A DNA stretch of 64,000 nucleotides, taken from a virus. Its lineage: Duplodnaviria > Caudoviricetes. This document shows, piece after piece, positions 16,268 to 64,000 of the stretch; positions within the stretch are counted from its first letter, which is position 1; each line of letters starts with the position of its first letter. The position numbers were made by a program, and so were the translations under genes. Location of the stretch: the IMG/VR virus record IMGVR_UViG_3300037067_026718, positions 1-64,000 of that record. The stretch is one strand, 5' to 3'. The notes under the pieces are model-generated. The model was not told the DNA's origin. It did not search any database and worked only from the letters and a program-made list of their open reading frames with translations.

Positions 16268-16703
16268 GCCGTTCCTCCATAATCTCATCGAAGGCCTTCA
16301 GGCCTTCTTTCGTCAGCCGGTAGAAGGGATCAGGAACGAAGGACTTCTTGCCTACGCACTCCATGAGCCCTTTCTCGACCAAAGCCAACAGCTCGGGGTT
16401 GTCTCCGCAGTAAAGCCCCTGTGCAGCCCTGGTGGCAGTATGGACGATGATTTCCTTTTCCTCGGCGGTAAGAGCTGTCCTTTCCGGAGCAAGAACCATC
16501 ATCTCAGGAAAATAGACTCGCTCAGCCGGTCCATCGCAATCAATCCTTCGAAATTTGGTGATCTCCTCGCTGAGCTCAGGATCCAGGCCTCTGATGTGGT
16601 TGTTCAAAGCCGTGTAGGCTTCTCCGGAGAGGTCGTCATTTCCAGCCATGAGAAGGTTGACGAGATCAACCAGCTTGGCCCTTTGCTCTGTCCAGTTAAG
16701 CAT
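16245..16703 (-). CDS. hypothetical protein with winged-helix-like C-terminus
   Basis: LVEKGLM...YRLTKEG; N-terminus similar to 40240-40671. Confidence 0.6.
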   Translation of the reverse strand: MLNWTEQRAKLVDLVNLLMAGNDDLSGEAYTALNNHIRGLDPELSEEITKFRRIDCDGPAERVYFPEMMVLAPERTALTAEEKEIIVHTATRAAQGLYCGDNPELLALVEKGLMECVGKKSFVPDPFYRLTKEGLKAFDEIMEERHDAEKVR

Positions 16704-18114
16704 AGCTTCCTTTCATCGGCCTTTGATCCCAGACCCTTCCATCTAGAAGAGGCATGCTTCGGACTATTCCGTCGTCTCCAGGCCCCTGCTTGTAGAACAG
16801 CGGGACGTTGGCAGAAACGCACTGCTCCTTGACTGACCGCGCCCATTCGATCTTCATGGGCCTTGCACCCGGGCCGGATTCGCAGCCCATGACCACAAAT
16901 GTTATGGAGTTTGGCCGCGTTTGCTCCGCCGTTGAGTGTAGTCCCCCGTCGGACCTCCTTGCATCTGGCGACTTTCGCCTCTCATAATCTTCGACAGTGT
17001 TTGATAAGTCACACCGTACATTTCTGACAGATCCTTCAGTGACTTCGTTCCTGATTTGTATATCGCTCTTGCCGCTTCTACTTGAGCATCGGTCAGTTTC
17101 GATGCATGATTTGTCTGCCCCCATTGATTGGCGGTGCGCCCCTTCTTCAATATCCGGACAGCATGCGTTATGTTCTCCGAGAGCGTAAGGATTTCGAGGT
17201 TTTCCGGCCTGTTGTCCTGCTTCATCCCATTGATGTGGTTGACCGTCATCCCTTCTGGGATGTTTCCGTTGTAATGAAGCCATACAAGCCTGTGAGCCAA
17301 GCAGTGAACTCTCTTCGCTTCGGTCATCCAGCGAACCTGAAGATATTGTCCGGAGTCGTGTTCTGCCCTGTGCCTTGGAATCTTCTTCAGCGTCAATCGT
17401 TTGTTCCATCGATTGCCTCGAAGCTCCGCGACTTTCCATATCGTCCCGTCTGCTTCTATCTGGAGAAGACCCAGTTTCACTGCTTGGTAGACTTCTACTT
17501 CTCGATTGAGTGCTTTCATACATTGGATAATACCCAATGTATTTTTGCAAGTCAACACTTGATAAACAAGGTTCAAGGCTGACCACCCGGCAGGCTGCGG
17601 GTGTCTGGAGCAGAAGCGGGATGCGCTTGTCGGCAGTTGCCTGATCCTCGATGGAGACGCCCACGATTACATTGGGGAGGGGCCACGGCACTTCTTCCCT
17701 AAGACATGACGCGAGCCTCATTGCCGAGTGCATCCATTCATCCAGAAGCATCTGCGCCCTCGAAGACCTCTTTGTCAACACGATAAACGTGTGTTGGGGC
17801 GCGTTCAGCATGGCAAGCCATACCCGCAGAATGAAGTCACTTGAAACGTTACTATGAAACAAGTCGCCCATGAACTGTACGCCGATGACAGCCGGTTTCC
17901 GTATCCGCATCGGAGCGGTCAACTCGTCCATTAGCATCAGGGGTGTTCCCCCGCCATACGCCTGTCTACGTTCATCGCTCAGGATCGGGTTCGCTGCAAG
18001 CCTGTCCGCCATGCTCAAGTGCCAGCAACGACGGCAGCCCTCCGAAACCCGACTGCACCGCATTGCGATCGGGTTCCAGGTGTGCGTCAAATACTCAATG
18101 CGGGTCGGCTGCAT
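16696..18114 (-). CDS. Gp37Gp68/DUF5131-family protein with a ~205-aa in-frame insert
   Basis: TRIEY..HTWNP..CSRVSEGCRRCW; MGDLFH; HTFIVLTKR; NVIVGVSIEDQ; SLEP; VVMGCESGPGARPM..W..SVKEQC....VPLFYKQ. Confidence 0.88.
   Translation of the reverse strand: MQPTRIEYLTHTWNPIAMRCSRVSEGCRRCWHLSMADRLAANPILSDERRQAYGGGTPLMLMDELTAPMRIRKPAVIGVQFMGDLFHSNVSSDFILRVWLAMLNAPQHTFIVLTKRSSRAQMLLDEWMHSAMRLASCLREEVPWPLPNVIVGVSIEDQATADKRIPLLLQTPAACRVVSLEPCLSSVDLQKYIGYYPMYESTQSRSRSLPSSETGSSPDRSRRDDMESRGASRQSMEQTIDAEEDSKAQGRTRLRTISSGSLDDRSEESSLLGSQACMASLQRKHPRRDDGQPHQWDEAGQQAGKPRNPYALGEHNACCPDIEEGAHRQSMGADKSCIETDRCSSRSGKSDIQIRNEVTEGSVRNVRCDLSNTVEDYERRKSPDARRSDGGLHSTAEQTRPNSITFVVMGCESGPGARPMKIEWARSVKEQCVSANVPLFYKQGPGDDGIVRSMPLLDGRVWDQRPMKGSYA
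16902..17519 (-). CDS. HNH endonuclease with C-terminal HTH, nested in the +1 frame of the DUF5131 gene
   Basis: LAHRLVW...IPEGMTVNHINGMKQDNRPENLEILTLSENITHA; HASKLTDAQV...LSEMYGVTYQTLSKIMRG. Confidence 0.9.
   Translation of the reverse strand: MKALNREVEVYQAVKLGLLQIEADGTIWKVAELRGNRWNKRLTLKKIPRHRAEHDSGQYLQVRWMTEAKRVHCLAHRLVWLHYNGNIPEGMTVNHINGMKQDNRPENLEILTLSENITHAVRILKKGRTANQWGQTNHASKLTDAQVEAARAIYKSGTKSLKDLSEMYGVTYQTLSKIMRGESRQMQGGPTGDYTQRRSKRGQTP
17527..17555 (-). promoter_or_regulatory. sigma70-type promoter for the nested HNH (likely leaderless mRNA)
   Basis: TTGACT-17 nt-TATTAT-7 nt-ATG. Confidence 0.7.
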
Positions 18115-18286
18115 TCTCTTCCACCCTCTCCCACTCAGACTCCATGATTGTGTATCCACAAGCCTCGCAGTGATGGATGTACGTCGGCCATGGACAGGAA
18201 TGCTGTACTTCTGCGTCCTGCTCTTTACCGCACTCAGGACAGCGGATGCGTTCGCAATGGCATTCTTCGCTCACGCCTTCCTCCAC
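18095..18286 (-). CDS. zinc-ribbon protein
   Basis: IRCPECG...HHCEACGYTIMESEW. Confidence 0.6.
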   Translation of the reverse strand: MEEGVSEECHCERIRCPECGKEQDAEVQHSCPWPTYIHHCEACGYTIMESEWERVEENAADPH

Positions 18287-19203
18287 TCACCTTTGTTGGT
18301 ATCGAATTCGTAGCCTTGAGGAACCAATGTCTCCTTCGCTTCTTCATGGCTTTTGTACTTTTGGAACGACCTTTTGCCGTCGACTATGATGCATTCGGTC
18401 ACGTAGGAAGGATTCTTCTCGGATATGTATGATTGTTTGATAACATCCTTCCATCGCCCTTGGTAAAGCCAGGTAGCTGGATTGGGGATAAATTCTTTTC
18501 CATCCGAGCGAAGAAAGTGTTTTGCCGCGACCTGAGCTTTTATAGCCTCGAGGATCACTGACGCTGCAGCTCCGTTCTTTTTCGCAGCAAGATATTTTCG
18601 GTACGCATCATCCTTCCCTCTGGAGATAGGGTAGACTTTCCAGAACTCCACGAAGTCGGAGTCGTATTCGTCGTCCTTCTTCCTGGGGGATCGCTGAGTC
18701 TTCCCGGTGGCCGGTTCCGGTTTCTTCTCACCCAGTTCAATCGAGAGGGAGAAATCCGGTATTACTTCTTCAATTTCTTTAACTTCTTCAACTTCTTTAG
18801 TGTGTCCGTCTGTTGTACTGTTTGCTGTACTGTCTGTTGTACTGTTTGCTGTACCGTCCGCTGTACCGTTACCTTGGTATGCGCTCCAGTTAAGTATTGA
18901 TACTACAGTACATACGTTTGTTTTTTGCTGTACCGTTTGCTGTACCGTTTTTGACTCTAAATAAGACAAAAACCTTCGTACTTTTCCGCGAGACCACTTC
19001 CAGCGACTGGCAAGAAAATCCTCTCCTGCCAAGACGTCTCCTGGTTTCAGGTGTACAGCAATCCCGCGCACAAAGACTGTTGTATCCTTGTAGGCGGCCA
19101 GAATCAGGAGGTCTGTCCACGCCTGCCAGTGGGTAAAAGGATCTGCGAAGTAAAGCTCGTTTTCCTGGCTAGATCGCCAGTACTTGATATATCCAATGGC
19201 CAT
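18271..19203 (-). CDS. phage replication initiator / replisome organiser
   Basis: GYIKYWRS...QAWTDLLILA...WKWSRGKVRRFL; FVEFWKVYP...FIPNPATWLYQGRWKD. Confidence 0.8.
   Translation of the reverse strand: MAIGYIKYWRSSQENELYFADPFTHWQAWTDLLILAAYKDTTVFVRGIAVHLKPGDVLAGEDFLASRWKWSRGKVRRFLSYLESKTVQQTVQQKTNVCTVVSILNWSAYQGNGTADGTANSTTDSTANSTTDGHTKEVEEVKEIEEVIPDFSLSIELGEKKPEPATGKTQRSPRKKDDEYDSDFVEFWKVYPISRGKDDAYRKYLAAKKNGAAASVILEAIKAQVAAKHFLRSDGKEFIPNPATWLYQGRWKDVIKQSYISEKNPSYVTECIIVDGKRSFQKYKSHEEAKETLVPQGYEFDTNKGEWRKA
18808..18946. repeat. seven 12-bp iteron-like repeats (5+2), candidate origin
   Basis: Unit GTYYGYTGTACY at 18808-18867 (x5) and 18923-18946 (x2). Confidence 0.75.
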
Positions 19204-22201: not shown

Positions 22202-22225
22202 TCCTTTCTTGTTCTACAGAAGCTC
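22202..22225. repeat. 24-bp direct repeat, copy 1 (flanks thg1)
   Basis: tcctttcttgttctacagaagctc; 22/24 identical to 23035-23058. Confidence 0.7.
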
Positions 22226-23035
22226 TTTGGCTACAATGGGGTCAGCTCCATCGAAGATGACCGCCTCGCGGTTTGTTACGGTACCCAGCGGCGGCATGTC
22301 CAGCACGCTGCACACCGAACGCTCCACGACTAGATCGGGGTTAGTCCGGGCTTCGTGCTTCAATGGCAGGCGGTCAATTTCTTCGGTGCTGAACGGAATA
22401 GCCACGGTACGCCTCTGTACATAGGCGCCGCGCTTAAACAGAGCCGGGTAGTCGTTCCAGTTCACGCCCTTGACGTGCAGCATGTCATGCTTCTGAGAGC
22501 TGTTCTTGCCCATCAGCGCTTTATGACTGTAGTACGCCGACGAGGCCATGCTTATGCTGTTTTTCGTAGCGTCATACTCGCGCCACAGGAACACGTTTGC
22601 TCCCTCGGCGCGGTTTGGAACGTTCCACACTCGAGCATCGAAGGTCGGCAGACGATGGGCATACTGAGGCATGCGCTCCAGCACCAGTCGGTAGAAGATC
22701 AACGTGGCTTGGGCAGCAAGCTGGCTCGTCATCTTCGCCACGCGACCATCGAAGTAAATCTGGCTTTGAGTTGTTTGTGCATGCCAGGCCAAAGTGATTT
22801 CATCGCTTTGCGTGTATCCCATGCAGGCACCGGTATCGCGCACCAAAGCTACAGTAGTGTCCAGCACACAGGCCGAGAAGGTGGCATCGAAAGGCCTCTC
22901 CATTCCATGTGTGAATCCGTGGAATGCACGACCGTCGATGCGAGCCAGCGCGGGAAGCAATTGCATCAGGCGCCGGCCAGACTCTACTCCTTCATACAGC
23001 TTCATGCGGTCGCCAAGACTGTCTTTCACTTTCAT
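22214..23035 (-). CDS. thg1: tRNA-His guanylyltransferase Thg1-like protein
   Basis: SLGDRMKLYE; RIDGRAFHGFT; GYTQSDEITL; FDGRVAK; FDARV; WREYDATKNSI. Confidence 0.92.
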   Translation of the reverse strand: MKVKDSLGDRMKLYEGVESGRRLMQLLPALARIDGRAFHGFTHGMERPFDATFSACVLDTTVALVRDTGACMGYTQSDEITLAWHAQTTQSQIYFDGRVAKMTSQLAAQATLIFYRLVLERMPQYAHRLPTFDARVWNVPNRAEGANVFLWREYDATKNSISMASSAYYSHKALMGKNSSQKHDMLHVKGVNWNDYPALFKRGAYVQRRTVAIPFSTEEIDRLPLKHEARTNPDLVVERSVCSVLDMPPLGTVTNREAVIFDGADPIVAKELL

Positions 23036-27658: not shown

Positions 27659-29116
27659 TTACGCCAATTGATCCATCATGGACCCACAAAGCGCTTCGGC
27701 TGGTTCAACCGCTACAGCGTTGCCTATCTGCTTGACCTGTTCGGTCTTATTGCCTTCGAACTCGTACTCTTCGAAGCCCATGGCGGCGGCAAGCTCATGA
27801 GGCTGCAGCATCCTGAAAAGGATGTCTACTCCCATGGGCTGAACAAGAGCAAACCGGTCTCTGGCAGTAATGGTATCCAAGGGCTGTGTGACAGAGTAGG
27901 AACCTTCCCCGGACTTTCCGTAGTACTTGGTCAGGAAAGGCTGACAGAGGGCTATAGCACCCGCCGTTGACACCGTAGGGAGAGGATTGTCCACTGATCG
28001 CGGAACAGCCCCGGACTGCTGGCCTATGACGAATGGTTCACACAGAGCAAATTCTCCACGATGTCCAGCCGGTATAGTCCCGAGAGGAACATCGCAGCTA
28101 CTCACCCGGTCTCCTCCTTCGTGCGCGACGTTCAGCACAAATGGCTGGCACAGCCCGAACCGGTTCTCACAGCCCTGCGTACGCAGCGGCTCGTCCACCG
28201 GATGCACTCGCATGGCCTTCTGATCGGACCCGCCCTGGTACTGCACAAGGAATGGCTGGCACAGAGCTGCATGGATACCGCCGGCACTGATCGTCTTCAA
28301 CGGGTCATCCAGCGACGCTGCCCAGCCTCCTGCCTGATCGTCTGCCGTACCACGAAGGCATGCGATGAACGCTTCGCCTCCGAACTTCCTCAACCCGGTC
28401 TCAATGCGATCCAGCGTCTTGGGTTTCAAGGGAATTTTCCTGTTGAAGATGCTTTTCCCCTTCAGATCCCAATCGATAATCGATCGAGCTGACTTCCATT
28501 GCTCCAACCCGTCTTGCCCTGAAGGGTCATGCGTGGGGACAGGCCATGAGATTTTCCCGATCTTGCTGGCTCTTACGAACAGCCGGCGGCGGGACGTGGC
28601 CGATCCGAAGTCGGCAGCATTGATGATCTTCCACTCCACGGTGTATCCCATGCTCTCGAGGGCAGCAATCCATGCCATGAAGGTAGCACCCTTTTTGGTT
28701 TTGTCCGGCCTGCCTTCAGCATTCAGCGGTCCCCAGTGTTGGAACTCTTTGACGTTTTCCACCAGGACTTCGGATACATTGAGCCTTTCGCACCAATGAA
28801 GCACATGCCATGCGCTGGCCCTGCTTTGATCGTTGCAGGGCTTGGCCCCCCTTGCTGTGCTGAAATGAGTGCATTCCGGAGAGGCCACCAGAATGTCCAG
28901 CTTGCCCCCCGGAACCAGTTTGTTGGGGTCGGCGCCGGTGCTGGCAAGGTCGGCACAGACATGGGTAGCCCAAGGGTGATTCCGGGCATGCGTCTTCACC
29001 GCGGTAGGCCAGTGGTTGATTGCCACCAGGTCAAGGGGAAGGCCACGTTTTATCGCGGCCTTCACCATCCCGGTACTTGTCCCACCGGCGCCGCAGAACA
29101 GGTCGGCGGCGTTCAT
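27659..29116 (-). CDS. C5-cytosine DNA methyltransferase with five repeated TRD-region segments
   Basis: DLFCGAGG, ASPECTHFS, VENVKEF, RRRLF, QIGNAV. Confidence 0.93.
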   Translation of the reverse strand: MNAADLFCGAGGTSTGMVKAAIKRGLPLDLVAINHWPTAVKTHARNHPWATHVCADLASTGADPNKLVPGGKLDILVASPECTHFSTARGAKPCNDQSRASAWHVLHWCERLNVSEVLVENVKEFQHWGPLNAEGRPDKTKKGATFMAWIAALESMGYTVEWKIINAADFGSATSRRRLFVRASKIGKISWPVPTHDPSGQDGLEQWKSARSIIDWDLKGKSIFNRKIPLKPKTLDRIETGLRKFGGEAFIACLRGTADDQAGGWAASLDDPLKTISAGGIHAALCQPFLVQYQGGSDQKAMRVHPVDEPLRTQGCENRFGLCQPFVLNVAHEGGDRVSSCDVPLGTIPAGHRGEFALCEPFVIGQQSGAVPRSVDNPLPTVSTAGAIALCQPFLTKYYGKSGEGSYSVTQPLDTITARDRFALVQPMGVDILFRMLQPHELAAAMGFEEYEFEGNKTEQVKQIGNAVAVEPAEALCGSMMDQLA

Positions 29117-57315: not shown

Positions 57316-58044
57316 CTAAACCCGGGGGATCCTTCGTAGATAGTTCATCGTATTTTTGCGCAGCAATGCCGAGGCCAGGGCTCCTGCTGCGGCACCAATG
57401 AGAGTAGTCCTTGCGGATAGCAAATAGTTTCTGTAAGTGGCCAATGCGGACATGCGGACTGGGCTGTTCTCGGGGACCCCGGCCCTGTTCCAGGCTTCTA
57501 CTTCCTGCCTGTACAAAGGAGTGTTTTCTGGATCCGAGAACATGGAAGATATCATCGACCGGTACTGGCCTCGTCTTTTCGTAAGAGATCCCGATTCCTT
57601 CCAGTCGCTGTAATGCCCCAGTTCATGGCGCATGACTTCATCAACCACTGGAGGCTTCACGGATATGGCTGGCTTGCCTCCCTTGACAGGAGGTTCAACA
57701 AAGAAACCGTGCCCTGGTCTTGTGGAGTTCAAAGCTTTGCGGTAGAGCATCCGCTTCAGAACATTCACGCCTGGCTGCTTGAGCCATTTGTTTATCTCTT
57801 CTTTGTTGGAAAGTACGCTGATATCTTCCGGGAATGATGTAACATCGAATTTCTTCGCTTTTCCAAATTCTCGTTCCACTTTCGACAACGCTACCAATGA
57901 GATAATCGTGTTGGCGAGCATTCCAGCCATGGATCCAGCTACTGCTCCTCCGAATATTTCCCTGCCTGGAACAGGGCCACTCGACCATCCCGCACGCTTC
58001 TCGAGCTCTATCCTGGCTGCAAGCTTGATGATGTGGTGGTTCAT
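57316..58044 (-). CDS. HExxH zinc-metallopeptidase-like protein with two hydrophobic segments and KxA motifs
   Basis: VMRHELGH...QEVEAW; IKLAA...EKRAG; GGAVAGSMAG; IGAAAGALA. Confidence 0.65.
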   Translation of the reverse strand: MNHHIIKLAARIELEKRAGWSSGPVPGREIFGGAVAGSMAGMLANTIISLVALSKVEREFGKAKKFDVTSFPEDISVLSNKEEINKWLKQPGVNVLKRMLYRKALNSTRPGHGFFVEPPVKGGKPAISVKPPVVDEVMRHELGHYSDWKESGSLTKRRGQYRSMISSMFSDPENTPLYRQEVEAWNRAGVPENSPVRMSALATYRNYLLSARTTLIGAAAGALASALLRKNTMNYLRRIPRV

Positions 58045-61000
58045 CAGTACTCCCCTGTTCTCCAGAGATCTCTTCCGAAGTCGATGCCTTGCAGGAACGG
58101 AGTAACTGGCTTTACTCCTTTTGAAGGACTCATGGCGCCCATGGCTGCGCTTTCCTGAAGCTGTCGAACCATGTCTCTACCCAGCATCTTGAGTGCCCAG
58201 TCAGGTTCGTTTTTTGCCAGATCGTAATCCATGCCGTCAAAGACCGGTTCGTACTTGATCAGCGCATCGCTGTCGCCTATATCCGCATTGATCGCCTGCA
58301 GCTCTTTGATGTCCTTGATGTCACCTGTCATCATGTCCTGGCTGCTGCCGGGATCCAAAACCTTGCCGTATCTCGTAAGGGCCGCCACTACTGTCTCTAT
58401 GTACCGGCGGTCTGGAGCCTTGCCGCCGTAGTTCCTTTCGATTTCGTCAACAAGGTAGTTCTGCATGGCCCTAAGGCCGTTGTATTTCATGACATCGTTG
58501 GGATCCGGAAGACCTTCATTGATCTGAAATCCGGCCTTCAGGCGATCGCCTACGGCAACCTTGAGCGGAGCATTGGTAGACGTGGTGAAAGACGTTCCGT
58601 CCTGCATGATGATTTCGTAGCCGCCGCCTCGCATCTTATTGATCTTGCCCACCACGCCGGCCTCAGGAGCAAGAGTGGCCTTCGCTCCGGCAGGGGCTCT
58701 TCCATTCAAGAGAGGCCAGATGGCATACAAGCCTTCTATTTTGTTGCTGGAAAGAGCGGAGCCTCCACCATGGAAAGCCTTCAACGTGAGCTGAACAGCC
58801 GGCTCGGTAAGGGTGTGGGCCGATATGACTCCTATGTCGGCGCCGACCTTCGGCTTCTCTCCATCCGGGAGTCTACCGAAATCCTTGGCGTAGAACCCGG
58901 TTTTTGCCACTGACGTCAAGGGAGATCTTACCATCACCGTCTTGATCTTGTTCGAACGGGCTGATGCTATCAGCTCTTCTGTTATGGGATCCCCGGCCAC
59001 GGCCAATGTTTTCCCCGCCGGGGTTACCAGGTCGAAAGCCAGGTATCTCTGAAGCACGGTGGGATGGTCAATGGGATACTCGATACCATCGGTAGGGTTT
59101 GCATCTCCGGGTGCCACTACGCTGCCCAGGGTAGACCTCAGAAGCTGCTTGCTGAAATAGCCGGGCTCCCTGACTTCAATGCTCTTCGAATGCAGAGCAG
59201 GCCGGTTGCCTTTCGATGCCACCCAGTAGTCCATGAAATCGAGTCCTTCTCCGTATCCGGTGCGGATCAGATGAGGGATAGGGCCGTCGAATCCGTTCAC
59301 CGTCATGGGAGAAAACTTGATCTGCATGACATTGGACCAATTCCCCTTGGCTCCGGAATCAGCAAGGACGGCAACTGCCGACCGAGGGTCTATTGAAGAC
59401 CTGAGCCTGGAGTAGACAGAGTCGGTTTCCTTCTGAGCCAAGAAGCCGCCAACGGACTTGGACATCTCTTCCTTGCTTATCGGCATGAAGTCCTTCAGGC
59501 TGAATGACAACCCAACCCTGGTGTTGAAGGCATTGCCCAGATCGGTGAGTTTCATCAAAGTGTTGACGTAATCCCCGGGAGCATGCTTACCCACAGCGTT
59601 GAGTATCTCGCCTATCTTCTTGTCGTTGTAGACTACATTGTAACCCTGTCTGAACTGCTCAGGAATGGCTTTGTTCACCAAAATACGACCGGCAGTGACA
59701 ACGACATTGCCTTTGTCTGTTTTGAGGGTTACTCCGTCATTGAGGGCTATTTCATTGGCTTCGTAAGCCTCTATGACTTCCCTCTCGGTGGTGTACTTCT
59801 TGTCGGGCCTCGGGTCTACGAAGTGAGTACCGTAATAGAGGCCGGCAATGGTGTCTTCCTCGGGACGCATGATCGTCTGGTCCAGCCCGGGCTTGAACAG
59901 GTTCTTGGATGGCAGCAGCTTTTCTCTGGCTTCCCTCACCGCTTCGTCGGAAACCGGGACGGAATAGCCCATTGCATCGCCATCGAAGTCGGCATTGAAG
60001 CCACGGGCTATCAAAGGACTGATCTCCATGGACTTGCCCGGTATCATCTTGGCCCAGAAAGCCATGACGTTGAACTTGTGGAGCTTGGGGTCCCTGGTGA
60101 TCATGACCGGACGATGTTTCATCTCGGCCTGCAGAGTTGCTTCAGCCAAAGCTTCCCTGTCTTCTATCATCCGCCTGGCTTCCAGAGGGGGGATGCCTTC
60201 CTTGGTCAGCCTGCGCATTACGAAAGAATGGAAGAGCGGCCATGCTGATTCTTCGGGAAGTCCGATCTCGTCTACGGACAAACCGGGATTGGGCCTGATG
60301 ACTGCACGGCCGCCAACCGACTGACGTTTGTCGAATATCTTATCCTGGAAATGCCCCCAGGAGGAAGACTCCCCCTTGAGATATTCGAGGATCCCGGTCC
60401 TCGGCTTGGCTCCGTACCCTATGCCCGTGGCCCCTATCTGGATCGCCTTTACGGCATCGTAGAGGTTCGTCCTCACTTCATCCAGTACGGAGGCCGGCAT
60501 GCTGCCCTGGCCGTCCTTGAGCGTCATGGCAAGCGTTCCTATGTCCTGGTACAGAGCTGTGAAATCACTGACCCTTATCCCGTTGTCTTTCGTGAGGTAC
60601 ACCGGTCTGAACTGCGGAGGAAGAACCGGAACCTTGGATATGACGTAAGCGTTCTCCGGTTTGATGCCGATGCGCTGCAGAGCGTTCAGGTACCGCAATT
60701 TCTTGACCATGGCATCCTTGGCAGTACCGGTGTGATTGGGGATCATCTCCTTCAAAGACTTGATGGAAGACTCTACGTCAATGGACGAAAGCATGGCTTT
60801 GAAAGCATGGCCACCGGTGATGGACTTGTCCCCCTTTACCCGGGGAGCCAGTACTCCGTCTTTGTACCCTACCCTGCCGGCGATGATGTCATCATAGGCG
60901 CCCTGCGTCAGGCCCAGGATGGCTCTGATAGCCTTTTCGTAAACCGGGTTGGGAAGAGGCTCCGCCAGGGAGATATGCCCCCATTTGTCTCCCTGCATGC

Positions 61001-64000
61001 CTCCAAGAAGCTTTTCATCGTAGAGGCCGCCTTCGTATGACTGCAACATCTCGTATTTACCGGGACGCCCGATCCGGGTGGCCATCGCTGGATTGGGTAT
61101 TTCGCCCGAACTCATCCTGTCGACTTCTCTGTCGGTGAGAGGCAAAAGCTGGTAATTGTCGCCTTGCTTGCGGACATCAATGCCGGCGCCTTTGAGTAGT
61201 GCCTGCAACTTTTTGAACGCAAAGGTCATCTGGGGCGATGGAATGTTGCTGCCTTCCTCAACGGCCCTCCAGAAATCATCGTTCTTCTCGCTCTTGGTGG
61301 TCGCTATCTCCCGCAGGTTGCTCGTGGCTCCATGGGCCAACAGAGCGTAGAATCCCAGGCCTCCCATCTTGGGTCCCTTAATGGGGCGCTGGCTGACTAT
61401 GTCGTAAGGATCGCTTCTGTTGCGAACATTGAAGTACGGCTCGGCCTCCTGCTTCTGCCGGGTAAAGTACTGATACCCGGTCATTACCTTGATGGGCCTG
61501 TCACCATCCTTGATGGGATTGCCGTCCTTGTCGTAGATCTCTTCCTGGTCTTCAAGACCGTATTCCTTCATTTTCTTGTATACGGCCTCCGGAGAGCTCC
61601 CCTTCAGGTTGAAAAGCTCCACAATGAAAGGTATACCGGTGTGGGCGGCTATCTTCGAAGCTGCGGCCTCGATTACCTGGCCGGTGTTGTTCCTTGAGGT
61701 GACGGCGGCCGGGTTCTGAAGAATGTCGAACGGCTGACCACTTTTGTCATGAGGCATTTCATCGTCGGGAAGGATCGCAGATACGACGCCCTTCGCCTGA
61801 TGACGATTGGAATTGCCAGTCCAGCATGCCTTCCCGTTGCGACGGACATACATCACATGGTTGGGAACAGTGCAGCAATACACCAGGCCGTCGTAATCAA
61901 CCAGTTTTTCCTCCTGGATGTGCTGTGACTTTGTATGGCCATGGTTGACCATGGGCTCAGTTTTCTTCCTGATAACAGAAACCCTGTATCGATCGGCATG
62001 GGCTTCATTGTCATCCCTAAGGCACGGAGTTACATTGGCAGCCATCCCGGCTTTCAATGCTATTTCCTGAACGTCATCAGCCAAGCGCTTACTCGTAGTG
62101 GAGTAACTCACACATGAAAAACTGGAGCCGTCGCAAGAAAGCAGTGCATCCAAAAGAATATTCATCTGCCTCTGCGACAACTCCATGAACTCCCTGGGGA
62201 CATACTTGTCGTTGGCGTGTCCGAGTACCGATAGATACTCATTGAGCTGCCTTGAGGATATGATGATTTTGCCTTCCCTGGGATTGTACGGCCACTTCAT
62301 TCTATCAAGGCATGCTGTGATTCTGTGGTAGACGTAACCACCATACGAATTCTTTGTTGTTTTATTCTTATTGATAGTTACGTAATATCCATCTTTCGAG
62401 AAATGGCCATCAGCTATGTAATACCCCAGGAATTCCAGCCAGTCATCCATGGCTACTTCAGGAAGCCCATGGGGGCTGAAGCCATGATGACGGCCATCCA
62501 CAGTCAGCAGGCAAAACTCTGATGCTTCCTTACCTATCCAAGTTCCATTCTTCTTGTACTGGACTCGTCGGCCCATAATATCCTGAGCCTGATGCAAGGC
62601 GAATGATTGAGCTCTCCGCGTTTTGACCAGCATGTTGTGATTGAGAGTCGTCAGCAAGTCGATCTGCTGAGACCGGATGCCATACATTTTTCCGGTGTGC
62701 CAATAGGAGAACACAGCCTCTGGATGCTGGTATTCCACAATTCCGGTATCCTGGTTGAGCGTGCATACCTGCTCATTAACGGTGAGATCAGAAACCGGGA
62801 TCCAACCCCTCTGGGTAAGGTATTCGTGGTCATCTGAAAGACACAGCTTATCCCCTGTCTTTACCGACCGCTCCGACCGCACGAAAATCTTGATCCCGGT
62901 GGGAGTACGGACTATTCTTTCGACGACGCCCGGGTCGCTGGCTTCCCAGACCTTGTCATCCCTGATCAGTTGCTGCTTCATTACCTGGCTCACATTGCCT
63001 GCCAGGATATCCTCCTGGGTCAAGCTTTTGGGGGTGAGCTTGAGGATGATAGGGTCACCGGTGTTCAACACGGTGCCTTCTTTGACAACTCCGTCATCAT
63101 CTATGTTGTCGAGCTGCATGGCCCGGTACTCTTTGGGATAGAGGGCCTTGAACCTGTTCTTATTGAAAACGTCATGCTTCCTGGAGCTGGCTTCCACCTG
63201 GTCTACGTGGATGGCTTTCATCTTCTCGGCAGCGCTCTCGGATATCAGCAGGCCGTCCATGAAGTTCCAGCCCTTGTATGGAAGAAAGGCCACTCTGAGA
63301 TTGCGCCCCATAGCCAGCATGCCGTTCCTGATGAAACTGTTGGTGGCGACTGCCTGCCCCTTCTTTACTATTTCACCCGCCTTTACAACGGGTATTTCAT
63401 GGATGACATTGCCTCCGTTGAGAGGGTAGTTTGTGTAAAGCTCTATGTCTTCGGTATCGCCGGTCTTGATGTCGCGCAGGGTGATGGAGTCCTTCTTCAC
63501 CTTCACGACTTCGCAATCGCCCATGTAAGAAGGAACGCGCCGAGAGAATCGGTTGCCGAACTCTTGTTCCGCGGTGAAGACGGATCCATCCGCGTTTTTG
63601 TGAACCCCGGCCAATACCAAGGGGTTTTCCGGCTCTGCAAGCATGAGAGCATGTGTGCTTTGCTTGACGGACATAGTGCTTCTTGTAGGAATGTTGTTGG
63701 GAAGGAATGGGATCAAAAGGCTTGCCCAGTCAAAAGCATGGTGGGGGGAGGCTATGACGTAATCGATCTTCGAGTATGGAACCTCAACTATCTCGCCGTG
63801 ATGCAATGCCTTTACCTTGGCCTTGTTGGGAAGGTACACCCCGGTTTCGCGCATGCTGTACTCACCAGGAATGGCGGTGTACTTGTCGTATATCTCCCGG
63901 GGGGTAACCGCCTTTGTTCCGGATTGCTTGCCCGTGGTGAAATCGAGAACGGAAGCCTTGAGCTCCCTCCCCACCTTCCGGGCGCCGGACGACAGATGCA
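58044..64000 (-). CDS. rpoBC: fused beta-beta' multisubunit-type RNA polymerase (5' end beyond window), intein-containing
   Basis: beta: GRNLRVAFLPYKGWNF.D, GDKL/SNRHQAKGVV, NP..V.SR.N.GQ; beta': WGHISL, VPVLPPQFRP, RAVI.P.P.L, R.P.LH, NADFDGD (59976-59996), SGAKG, EPAVQLTLKAFH; frame open to 64000. Confidence 0.95.
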   Translation of the reverse strand, partial: HLSSGARKVGRELKASVLDFTTGKQSGTKAVTPREIYDKYTAIPGEYSMRETGVYLPNKAKVKALHHGEIVEVPYSKIDYVIASPHHAFDWASLLIPFLPNNIPTRSTMSVKQSTHALMLAEPENPLVLAGVHKNADGSVFTAEQEFGNRFSRRVPSYMGDCEVVKVKKDSITLRDIKTGDTEDIELYTNYPLNGGNVIHEIPVVKAGEIVKKGQAVATNSFIRNGMLAMGRNLRVAFLPYKGWNFMDGLLISESAAEKMKAIHVDQVEASSRKHDVFNKNRFKALYPKEYRAMQLDNIDDDGVVKEGTVLNTGDPIILKLTPKSLTQEDILAGNVSQVMKQQLIRDDKVWEASDPGVVERIVRTPTGIKIFVRSERSVKTGDKLCLSDDHEYLTQRGWIPVSDLTVNEQVCTLNQDTGIVEYQHPEAVFSYWHTGKMYGIRSQQIDLLTTLNHNMLVKTRRAQSFALHQAQDIMGRRVQYKKNGTWIGKEASEFCLLTVDGRHHGFSPHGLPEVAMDDWLEFLGYYIADGHFSKDGYYVTINKNKTTKNSYGGYVYHRITACLDRMKWPYNPREGKIIISSRQLNEYLSVLGHANDKYVPREFMELSQRQMNILLDALLSCDGSSFSCVSYSTTSKRLADDVQEIALKAGMAANVTPCLRDDNEAHADRYRVSVIRKKTEPMVNHGHTKSQHIQEEKLVDYDGLVYCCTVPNHVMYVRRNGKACWTGNSNRHQAKGVVSAILPDDEMPHDKSGQPFDILQNPAAVTSRNNTGQVIEAAASKIAAHTGIPFIVELFNLKGSSPEAVYKKMKEYGLEDQEEIYDKDGNPIKDGDRPIKVMTGYQYFTRQKQEAEPYFNVRNRSDPYDIVSQRPIKGPKMGGLGFYALLAHGATSNLREIATTKSEKNDDFWRAVEEGSNIPSPQMTFAFKKLQALLKGAGIDVRKQGDNYQLLPLTDREVDRMSSGEIPNPAMATRIGRPGKYEMLQSYEGGLYDEKLLGGMQGDKWGHISLAEPLPNPVYEKAIRAILGLTQGAYDDIIAGRVGYKDGVLAPRVKGDKSITGGHAFKAMLSSIDVESSIKSLKEMIPNHTGTAKDAMVKKLRYLNALQRIGIKPENAYVISKVPVLPPQFRPVYLTKDNGIRVSDFTALYQDIGTLAMTLKDGQGSMPASVLDEVRTNLYDAVKAIQIGATGIGYGAKPRTGILEYLKGESSSWGHFQDKIFDKRQSVGGRAVIRPNPGLSVDEIGLPEESAWPLFHSFVMRRLTKEGIPPLEARRMIEDREALAEATLQAEMKHRPVMITRDPKLHKFNVMAFWAKMIPGKSMEISPLIARGFNADFDGDAMGYSVPVSDEAVREAREKLLPSKNLFKPGLDQTIMRPEEDTIAGLYYGTHFVDPRPDKKYTTEREVIEAYEANEIALNDGVTLKTDKGNVVVTAGRILVNKAIPEQFRQGYNVVYNDKKIGEILNAVGKHAPGDYVNTLMKLTDLGNAFNTRVGLSFSLKDFMPISKEEMSKSVGGFLAQKETDSVYSRLRSSIDPRSAVAVLADSGAKGNWSNVMQIKFSPMTVNGFDGPIPHLIRTGYGEGLDFMDYWVASKGNRPALHSKSIEVREPGYFSKQLLRSTLGSVVAPGDANPTDGIEYPIDHPTVLQRYLAFDLVTPAGKTLAVAGDPITEELIASARSNKIKTVMVRSPLTSVAKTGFYAKDFGRLPDGEKPKVGADIGVISAHTLTEPAVQLTLKAFHGGGSALSSNKIEGLYAIWPLLNGRAPAGAKATLAPEAGVVGKINKMRGGGYEIIMQDGTSFTTSTNAPLKVAVGDRLKAGFQINEGLPDPNDVMKYNGLRAMQNYLVDEIERNYGGKAPDRRYIETVVAALTRYGKVLDPGSSQDMMTGDIKDIKELQAINADIGDSDALIKYEPVFDGMDYDLAKNEPDWALKMLGRDMVRQLQESAAMGAMSPSKGVKPVTPFLQGIDFGRDLWRTGEY
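61812..62843 (-). mobile_element. 344-aa intein with LAGLIDADG homing endonuclease
   Basis: Starts CLSDDHEYLTQRGW; block B TTLNHNM; FLGYYIADG and LDALLSCDG; ends VYCCTVPNH..VRRNG..WTGN followed by Ser. Confidence 0.93.

Follow-up and report, generated by a model that had tools for sequence, protein, structure and literature searches.

The window analyzed here is a 64,000-nt stretch of viral DNA (Duplodnaviria; Caudoviricetes; IMG/VR record IMGVR_UViG_3300037067_026718, positions 1 to 64,000). On its minus strand lies a DUF5131 gene whose unbroken open reading frame (ORF) contains a second, complete ORF for an HNH protein, shifted by +1 (Table 1). A sequence-only reading of this DNA had proposed exactly such a nested HNH and helix-turn-helix (HTH) gene of 205 amino acids, and ORF analysis and Pfam searches agree with it. 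In blastn searches of cultured phages, nothing beyond an 8% match was found.

At its full extent, the host ORF covers 16696..18159(-) (487 amino acids) and is open back to a GTG at 18159; judged from where homologs start, the true start is likely the ATG at 18114. Its match to PF07505 (E = 7e-56; 189.8 bits versus a gathering cut-off of 28.9) is split around the insert into residues 19 to 205 and a C-terminal stretch. The cysteines of the N-terminal three-Cys motif (C35, C42, and C45) are nearly invariant, and the core residues flanking the insert on both sides are invariant across filled and empty forms of the protein. A Foldseek comparison of the host model with the PDB yielded weak radical-SAM matches only, and the predicted fold weakly resembles spore photoproduct lyase.

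The nested ORF is open over 16902..17576(-), with its ATG at 17519, and encodes an N-terminal beta-rich domain, an HNH_3 motif, a linker, and a C-terminal HTH. HNH_3 (PF13392) is matched with an E value of 9e-17 (60.9 bits versus a gathering cut-off of 24.8), HTH_3 weakly, and the PHROGs assignment is phrog_59, HNH (E = 6e-31). Among nine homologs, the HNH catalytic columns N94, H95, G98, N107, L108, E109, and H119 are invariant, and AlphaFold2 predicts a confident fold for this frame (pLDDT of 80 to 94 over residues 5 to 122). A PDB search with the HNH profile returned I-HmuI (1u3e) as the sole match (E = 4e-7). This enzyme of Bacillus phage SPO1, a nicking homing endonuclease of the HNH type, likewise combines an HNH_3-type core with N-terminal beta-rich and C-terminal helical DNA-binding parts. 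Its gene resides in a self-splicing group I intron, whereas the HNH gene in the window has no intron and is overprinted on host coding sequence. Among the matches listed by tblastn against cultured phages, only free-standing relatives with about 27 to 34% identity appeared. The TAA of the HNH gene (16904..16902) overlaps the host codons S-I-T, five codons ahead of the conserved G-x-E-S-G, in line with the earlier remark that it coincides with the codons where the host motif resumes.

Table 1. Positions of the host gene, the nested gene, and associated features in the window
Feature	Position	Strand	Basis
DUF5131 host gene (Gp37/Gp68, radical-SAM-like three-Cys protein)	16696..18114	-	Unbroken ORF; Pfam PF07505
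Host 5' part, N-terminal core ending with S-L-E-P codons	17570..18114	-	Allele comparison
Imported or replaced segment, holding the promoter-like signal and the HNH gene	16893..17569	-	Homology breakpoints versus empty allele
Sigma-70-like promoter (putative), TTGACT-17 nt-TATTAT, in host codons S-V-D-L ... I-G-Y-Y	17527..17555	-	10/12 consensus match
Nested HNH (putative homing-endonuclease) gene, 205 aa, +1 frame of host	16902..17519	-	Pfam HNH_3
Host 3' part, C-terminal core, G-C-E-S-G-P ... K-Q	16696..16892	-	Allele comparison

Stop depletion and recurrence of the nested layout

Both frames had been described as open for 618 nt, and over this overlap we counted 0 stops in the host frame and 16 in the third frame. 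The chance of such openness had been put naively at (61/64)^205, about 5e-5. Synonymous-codon shuffling of the HNH gene (20,000 shuffles), a better null, gave a value of the same order or smaller: shuffled genes had a mean of about 9.1 to 9.2 host-frame stops, and the host frame was open in 0 of 20,000. Each of the 21 nested loci tested likewise had 0 host-frame stops, against 2.9 to 11.3 expected. The HNH frame was better conserved than the host frame in 208 of 210 pairs (e.g., 82% versus 50% identity), which bears out the view of the host-frame insert as a by-product frame; identity among the host-frame inserts is only 21 to 30%, without conserved blocks. Selection on the shadow frame beyond stop avoidance was not detected, as its hydrophobic/polar content barely differs from that of synonymous shuffles and no separate selection for disorder was seen; the size of the shift is that expected from about 8 stops swapped for Gln, Arg, or Glu codons. 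These data support the conclusion that both frames are held open by selection and not by chance. Chance or an assembly artifact is excluded by the shuffles together with the recurrence of the layout in independent assemblies.

This recurrence extends to all 22 related loci for which DNA was examined. They span GC contents of 41 to 60% and HNH identities down to about 30%, and none has a host-frame stop. To these we added a search that started from the HNH and is not biased by ORF calling. Among its 80 viral loci, the HNH lay within a DUF5131 gene in 16, with an open host frame in every case, and no interrupted host gene was seen. Free-standing HNH genes behave differently: the corresponding frame holds 5.8 stops per 100 codons at 48 viral loci (6.7 expected, i.e., no depletion) and 2 to 42 stops at each of 32 genomic loci. 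Of 80 free-standing relatives, all but one short match have stops in this frame. The comparison of nested with free-standing HNHs that the sequence-only reading had suggested thus turned out in its favor, and neither of the two observations it had named as speaking against itself, frequent host-frame stops in homologous inserts and open shadow frames common in free-standing HNHs, was made. The 32 genomic loci come from species-representative genomes, in which the HNHs found were distant and free-standing and none was nested. At least 29 proteins have the shadow-frame insert, and most of these represent 50%-identity clusters of their own. At every locus examined, gene callers reported the long host ORF alone, which leaves the nuclease systematically unannotated.

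Allele breakpoints and splicing signatures

Homology to the closest empty allele (L090) stops after the S-L-E-P codons (17570/17569) and resumes at 16892, which delimits an imported or replaced segment of 677 nt, compared with 83 nt in L090. The start of the insert, previously placed just after SLEPCLSSVDL, therefore has to be moved to directly after S-L-E-P. Over 17899..17610, the host 5' part is 94 to 97% identical to L090 at the nucleotide level and only 58 to 63% identical to the filled allele L004. The inserted segment is 98.9% identical to L004, a value that overstates the recency of transfer relative to the 3' flank because dual coding slows divergence. The host 3' part is 90.9% identical to L004 and about 83% identical to L090 and looks like a 3' co-conversion tract. 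As judged from these comparisons, the mosaic of empty (L090) and filled (L004) alleles shows an apparently recent cassette transfer. Across loci, the identity of the host correlates poorly with that of the HNH (r = 0.25), and a second insertion site in DUF5131 was found in L013, L017, and L033.

One locus (L011) carries a related free-standing HNH gene directly downstream of an intact DUF5131 gene. This would suit a domesticated HNH partner of DUF5131, for example in DNA modification or defense, with the overlap serving compact co-expression. However, a free-standing endonuclease beside its target gene is also the classic layout of intronless homing. Domestication is further at odds with the patchy distribution, the existence of a near-identical empty allele, the occurrence of one cassette in host genes whose 5' halves are about 40% divergent, the decoupled host and HNH trees, and the use of two different insertion sites. 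Moreover, most DUF5131 genes lack the cassette: the family counts 25,291 representatives, and long forms make up only a few dozen of the 150 best-scoring ones. We consider domestication improbable.

The sequence-only reading had described the element as one without splicing, and neither an intron nor an intein signature was found by Rfam or Pfam. With regard to RNA, Rfam, which covers described families, gave 0 matches at E ≤ 1. Of the 677 inserted nt, 618 belong to the HNH ORF, and the remaining 59 nt leave no room for a ribozyme core. A self-splicing intron, of group I or an undescribed type, that carries the HNH ORF and keeps the host frame open incidentally would match the usual residence of I-HmuI-type HNH genes in group I introns of phage genes, and Rfam is blind to undescribed ribozymes. 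Nevertheless, a spliced insert gives no reason for 0 host-frame stops in 22 of 22 loci, where 3 to 11 are expected in each, and among the readings weighed here the intron is the least credible.

With regard to protein, the host-frame product of the inserted segment is a polar stretch of about 200 to 225 residues without any Pfam match at E ≤ 10, Hint and intein families included. AlphaFold2 assigns this insert a pLDDT of 30 to 55, without a folded domain, and the DUF5131 core values above 90, consistent with the earlier suggestion that the insert is carried as a disordered loop. The alignment underlying the predicted disorder of the insert is shallow and fast evolving. Some actinophage inteins encode their homing endonuclease out of frame (bioRxiv 10.1101/2025.01.02.630785); as in the window, the endonuclease is read from a further frame of an insertion that stays in frame with a phage gene, and annotation pipelines overlook it. 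A noncanonical intein of this kind, with protein splicing that removes the host-frame insert, could be imagined here too, the more so as the residue after E-P is a Cys in the window. This residue, however, belongs to the host motif E-P-x-L, which is also present in empty alleles, and other filled alleles have L, M, or A at this position. Whereas splicing blocks remove the insert in those inteins, the segment in the window has neither a Hint domain nor the His-Asn plus Cys/Ser/Thr expected at the 3' junction, and an intein is also hard to reconcile with the missing folded domain and the low, block-free conservation of the host-frame inserts. An intein thus appears very unlikely.

Our preferred explanation, which we hold to be probable, is a selfish homing-endonuclease gene (HNH, I-HmuI-like) that resides in the phage DUF5131 gene without intron or intein and is read in two frames. 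The cassette would sit in a variable surface loop, between the strand ending in E-P and the strand preceding G-x-E-S-G. Its +1 frame would encode the endonuclease and be under amino acid selection, and the host frame would be selected for freedom from stops only. As the host frame is kept stop-free by selection, the host protein probably contains the insert as a flexible loop, with no splicing involved: we infer that ribosomes read straight through, which would give DUF5131 a loop of about 200 polar, disordered residues. The endonuclease would be made separately from the host protein and presumably nicks or cuts empty DUF5131 alleles in co-infection, after which the cassette would be copied in together with flanking sequence. 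Stop depletion, recurrence, the AlphaFold2 models, and the promoter geometry described below lend support to this mechanism, which the sequence-only reading had put forward, at the level of sequence and structure prediction. The stop statistics and the unbiased census suggest that splicing is not required for a homing endonuclease to survive within a coding gene; its only cost may be one shadow frame kept stop-free.

Relation to known homing elements

The sequence-only reading had presented the arrangement as a further strategy of homing endonucleases. The design is not new, as HNHs concealed out of frame in DNA methylase genes of mycobacteriophages, namely the ShiLan domain and the insertion in Pacc40 gp60, were published in 2025 (Arsenault, Gosselin & Gogarten 2025, Genes 16:178, PMC11855218). 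As in the window, a conserved phage gene has an insertion that is taken up by an HNH ORF (about 160 to 200 amino acids in those phages) in another frame, the host frame is free of stops, no intron or intein signature is present, and translation in the host frame is predicted to give a loop. Further shared traits are a disjunct distribution, suspected leaderless expression, an element end consisting of TAA followed by C, and related free-standing HNHs beside uninvaded genes, as in L011. The features that define the ShiLan type were accordingly found here as an insertion relative to an empty allele, a stop-free host frame, an HNH ORF on the same strand, and no recognizable intron or intein.

Differences concern host, nuclease, and expression. 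The host gene is DUF5131 instead of a methylase, and the elements occur in uncultured phages with 41 to 60% GC instead of Mycobacterium phages. The ShiLan HNH is described as a zinc-finger-flanked HNHc, whereas the protein in the window combines HNH_3 with a C-terminal HTH and lacks the paired CxxC motifs described for ShiLan, so that it likely belongs to a different subfamily. The frame offset is +1 here and given as the "third frame" for ShiLan and Pacc40; the start codon is an ATG with an upstream -35/-10 pair here and a GTG there. The ShiLan paper contains no stop-depletion statistics, promoter or Shine-Dalgarno analysis, or second site (PMC11855218). New relative to that work are the host family (DUF5131), the subfamily of the HNH, a second site of insertion, and start signals that are embedded in host codons and conserved. 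The loci described here carry the ShiLan observation to another host enzyme and another HNH subfamily, and into a broad range of uncultured phages.

Free-standing homing endonucleases of the T4 seg/mob type split or flank their targets, as does mobE between nrdA and nrdB in T-even phages. They share with the element proposed here homing without intron or intein and co-conversion of flanks, and their layout is seen in L011. In their case, the endonuclease gene lies between genes or splits the host into two separately translated halves, whereas the host ORF in the window is continuous.

Whether frame-hidden HNHs represent a widespread and old third lifestyle, beside introns/inteins and free-standing genes, with start signals embedded in host codons and DUF5131 as a major hotspot with at least two loops in use, is in our estimate evenly balanced. 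If so, an unannotated nuclease gene would lie hidden behind thousands of "long-form" phage proteins in databases, and the read-through loop would be a natural experiment on the disordered insertion that an enzyme tolerates.

Start signals of the nested gene

The near-consensus promoter that had been proposed in the host codons, TTGACT-17-TATTAT-7-ATG, was confirmed as a motif, and diverged relatives show it with unchanged spacing. Only 7 nt separate its -10 hexamer from the HNH ATG downstream, so the predicted mRNA is leaderless or nearly so. Matching -35/-10/ATG geometry was found in six or seven other nested loci (L001, L004, L007, L008, L009, L012, and L098), i.e., it is kept in 8 of 22 nested loci, compared with a background of 0.0006 per position. 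Within the 2.2-kb region, promoter-like matches are about as frequent as chance predicts (2 versus 1.5 expected), and the argument for a promoter is hence one of comparative geometry.

No Shine-Dalgarno sequence precedes the HNH ATG in the window, where about 20 of 32 other genes have one. A sister clade (L002, L015, L025, L028, L031, L032, L014, and L006) carries strong GGAGG-type Shine-Dalgarno sites 5 to 9 nt before the HNH ATG and, in all eight loci, no well-placed promoter. This indicates that internal initiation on the host mRNA is one solution used by these elements. It is possible, though in our view doubtful, that the HNH gene of the window also has no promoter of its own and depends on internal initiation, in which case the hexamers would reflect host codons or common ancestry. 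The -35 (TTGAC) indeed owes part of its sequence to the common V/I-D-L host codons, and the regional match count fits this reading as well. What speaks for a promoter instead is the missing Shine-Dalgarno sequence among neighbors that mostly have one, together with the spacing kept at far above background in L001, L007, L012, and L098, the last with a perfect 12/12 match. L008 and L009 keep the spacing even though the sequence between the elements and the phase of the host codons both differ. In the window and its clade, the HNH would thus most likely be expressed from a promoter in host codons, with a transcript starting at or next to the ATG, and in the sister clade from a Shine-Dalgarno site embedded in the host mRNA. 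The conserved embedded signals offer a testable answer to the question raised in PMC11855218 of how hidden nucleases are expressed.

Two further candidates were rejected. A programmed frameshift fusing the DUF5131 N terminus to the HNH is contradicted by the HNH frame, which is open for only 3 to 49 codons upstream of the ATG across loci, and is further disfavored by the presence of an own HNH start signal at every locus. A 378-amino-acid form (P0137, locus L098), considered as a decayed HNH in a still-open host frame, turned out to carry an HNH that is short and lacks the HTH tail but is intact.

Architecture and conservation of the nested HNH gene

The sequence-only reading had placed a complete HNH+HTH ORF inside an unbroken DUF5131 ORF with a +1 shift, and ORF coordinates together with Pfam and PHROG matches bear this out (see table). 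The PF07505 match of the host ORF is split in two, with about 215 residues between the halves lacking a match. The nested ORF matches HNH_3 (E 9e-17) and, weakly, HTH_3 at its C-terminus, and it has a strong PHROG HNH match. A profile of the nested HNH and eight homologues matched a single solved structure, I-HmuI (1u3e, E 4e-7), and AlphaFold2 predicted a good fold for the HNH frame, with pLDDT 80-94 for residues 5-122; the HTH reached 71-84.

Over the 618-nt overlap, the host frame contains no stop codon and the third frame 16. When synonymous codons of the HNH gene were shuffled with protein and codon usage kept (20,000 shuffles), the host frame averaged 9.2 stops and was open in 0/20,000, confirming that both frames are open beyond chance. 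Since the GC content of the window is 52.7%, the double open frame is not a high-GC artefact. The nested arrangement is confirmed and strongly non-random. The antisense frames of the HNH gene contain 3, 13 and 5 stops, and the antisense ORF opposite the HNH and promoter region gave no sign of being coding.

Features of the window and of related loci
Feature	Location	Strand	Remarks
DUF5131 host ORF	18159..16696	-	homologues start at ATG 18114; PF07505 E 7e-56
Nested HNH ORF	ATG 17519, TAA 16904..16902	-	205 aa; wholly within DUF5131 ORF, shifted +1
Antisense ORF	17082-17582	+	166 aa
Thg1-like tRNA-His guanylyltransferase gene	22214-23035	-	PF04446 E 2e-24
C5 cytosine DNA methylase	27659-29116	-	485 aa; Pfam match in two stretches
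ORF at window end	58044-63974	-	1976 aa
DUF5131 gene without insert	C7:12011-12907		contig of assembly G000
DUF5131 remnant	L018:2419-3219		266-aa ORF around related nested 191-aa HNH
Short nested HNH	L098:2048-2482		~140 aa
Intact DUF5131 gene with adjacent HNH	L011:1635-3118		the HNH is a free-standing relative of the nested one

When the 487-aa product was used as a protein query, it retrieved short, empty DUF5131 forms of ~270-300 aa and long forms of 450-520 aa that are only 34-39% identical and align across the insert. DNA was retrieved for eight long forms (GC 41-60%); all eight have an HNH ORF at this position, likewise shifted by +1, and 0 host-frame stops compared to 4.4-10 expected. 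Because such a DUF5131-first search sees open frames only, the census was redone HNH-first with an HNH alignment (A2), yielding 80 viral-contig loci. Sixteen of them have the HNH nested in a DUF5131 gene, all 16 without host-frame stops, and no DUF5131 gene interrupted by a stop was found among the 80. Nested HNHs recur in long-insert homologues, and stops are depleted relative to free-standing genes: in 48 free-standing viral relatives, the shadow frame (corresponding to the host frame) has 5.8 stops per 100 codons versus 6.7 expected from shuffles. Another 32 free-standing relatives, taken from species genomes, have 2-42 shadow-frame stops each. Among 1.84 billion representatives searched exhaustively, 25,291 DUF5131 proteins were found, and similarity to the shadow-frame insert of the window was detectable in at least 29 proteins.

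At one further census locus, the high-GC L018, DUF5131 is reduced to ~19 N-terminal and ~45 C-terminal residues with the frame still open, which looks like a host gene that lost its middle. The short nested HNHs at L098 and L014, both of ~140 aa, lack the C-terminal HTH domain.

Selection on both frames and probable read-through of the host gene

Over the same DNA, identity was higher in the HNH frame than in the host frame in 208/210 nested-element pairs (e.g., 82% versus 50% and 54% versus 28%), and the HNH catalytic columns are invariant. The host-frame product of the insert is polar, with ~16% hydrophobic residues, a composition that comes mostly from the HNH sequence and stop removal; no extra selection on it was found. 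On both sides of the insert, invariant core residues are kept in filled and empty forms (T19, W46, D99, L-T-K-R 128-131, E196-P197, G425, E427, G429, R433 and K457), which suggests that the whole host protein is under selection.

Removal of the insert as an intron or intein was considered, and neither accounts for the purging of stops from the host frame. With both strands of 16400..18400 searched, Rfam gave no match at E<=1, and the HNH ORF takes up all but 59 of the 677 inserted nt. Pfam found nothing in the host-frame insert at E<=10; the insert also has no conserved blocks, and Cys/Ser/Thr or His-Asn residues were not found at its junctions. AlphaFold2, run on the host protein with 80 sequences, predicts no structure for the insert (pLDDT 30-55), against values above 90 in the DUF5131 core. 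The most economical reading, which we infer from these comparisons, is uninterrupted translation of the host protein, with the insert forming a loop that lies between two strands of the core. Comparative evidence supports the mechanism first proposed, in which the host protein would be made without splicing and carry a disordered loop.

The suggestion that this is a further, novel strategy did not hold, as the same design was published in February 2025 as the ShiLan domain of mycobacteriophage DNA methylases, with a second such element in Pacc40 gp60 (PMC11855218). The ShiLan insertion likewise hides an out-of-frame HNH, has 0 host-frame stops and lacks intron or intein features, whereas its HNH has flanking zinc fingers that are absent from the window HNH. 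A companion preprint (bioRxiv 10.1101/2025.01.02.630785) describes out-of-frame endonucleases within true inteins. DUF5131 appears in one of the papers searched, in a radical-SAM context. The window element is of the recently described ShiLan kind; DUF5131 as host family, its HNH subfamily, the use of two insertion sites and the conserved start signals embedded in host codons are new. The ShiLan paper covers no DUF5131 case, stop-depletion statistics or promoter analysis (PMC11855218).

Insertion sites and mobility

The closest relative of the 5' half of the window gene is an empty allele, L090 (94-97% nucleotide identity over 17899..17610). Homology is lost at 17570/17569 and regained at 16892, which bears out an insert in the host gene but places the break directly after the Glu-Pro codons and not, as first read, after SLEPCLSSVDL. 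L004, a filled allele of a different metagenome, matches the window at only 58-63% identity in this 5' half, but at 98.9% in the insert, at 90.9% in the gene's 3' part and at 94.9% in the downstream region. These identities mark the window gene as a recombinant, in which an L090-like gene received cassette and 3' flank from an L004-like donor. Such a pattern is as expected for homing with co-conversion; ordinary phage recombination here would look identical. Host and HNH similarities correlate poorly across 18 loci with the insert at this site, between E-P and G-x-E-S-G (r = 0.25).

In three viral contigs (L013, L017 and L033), a related out-of-frame HNH with 0 host-frame stops occupies a second insertion site, the variable loop of DUF5131 that follows L-T-K-R-P. 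A free-standing HNH right behind an intact target gene is the classic layout of intronless homing. At L011, such an HNH, related to the nested one (45% identity, 2 shadow-frame stops), follows an uninterrupted DUF5131 gene; this position next to the target may be the ancestral arrangement.

Start signals and surroundings

The promoter-like sequence TTGACT-17 nt-TATTAT-7 nt-ATG is present in host codons upstream of the HNH gene as claimed. By itself it does not stand out, since promoter-like matches are as frequent in shuffled sequence as in the region. When only -10 boxes ending 5-9 nt upstream of the start codon were accepted, 8/22 nested loci reached a promoter score of at least 10/12, versus a background of 0.0006 per position, and this recurrence makes the putative promoter more convincing. 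Examples are TTGACC/TATAAT (L001), TTGACA/TATAAC (L007) and a perfect TTGACA-17-TATAAT-7-ATG (L098); L008 and L009 share TTGACT-16-TAGAAT-6-ATG, with intervening sequence and host codon phase that differ from those of the other loci. No Shine-Dalgarno sequence was found before the window HNH, compared to ~20/32 neighbouring genes with one. Overall, we lean slightly toward a promoter for the window HNH. A second element clade has no such promoter; there, AGGAGG or GGAGG precedes the HNH ATG by 5-9 nt. There thus seem to be two ways to make the nuclease, a separate leaderless transcript or internal initiation on the host mRNA.

The window is phage-like, with small co-oriented genes, a C5 methylase, an S1-domain protein and, as unusual cargo, the Thg1-like gene. 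The whole assembly (G000) comprises 4.85 Mb in 295 contigs with 6.4% contamination, compared to 0.9-2.0 Mb for same-genus genomes, and the window contig, C3, may be a mis-binned phage and not bacterial chromosome. At least two other DUF5131 genes in this assembly, on contigs C7 and C148, are without insert.
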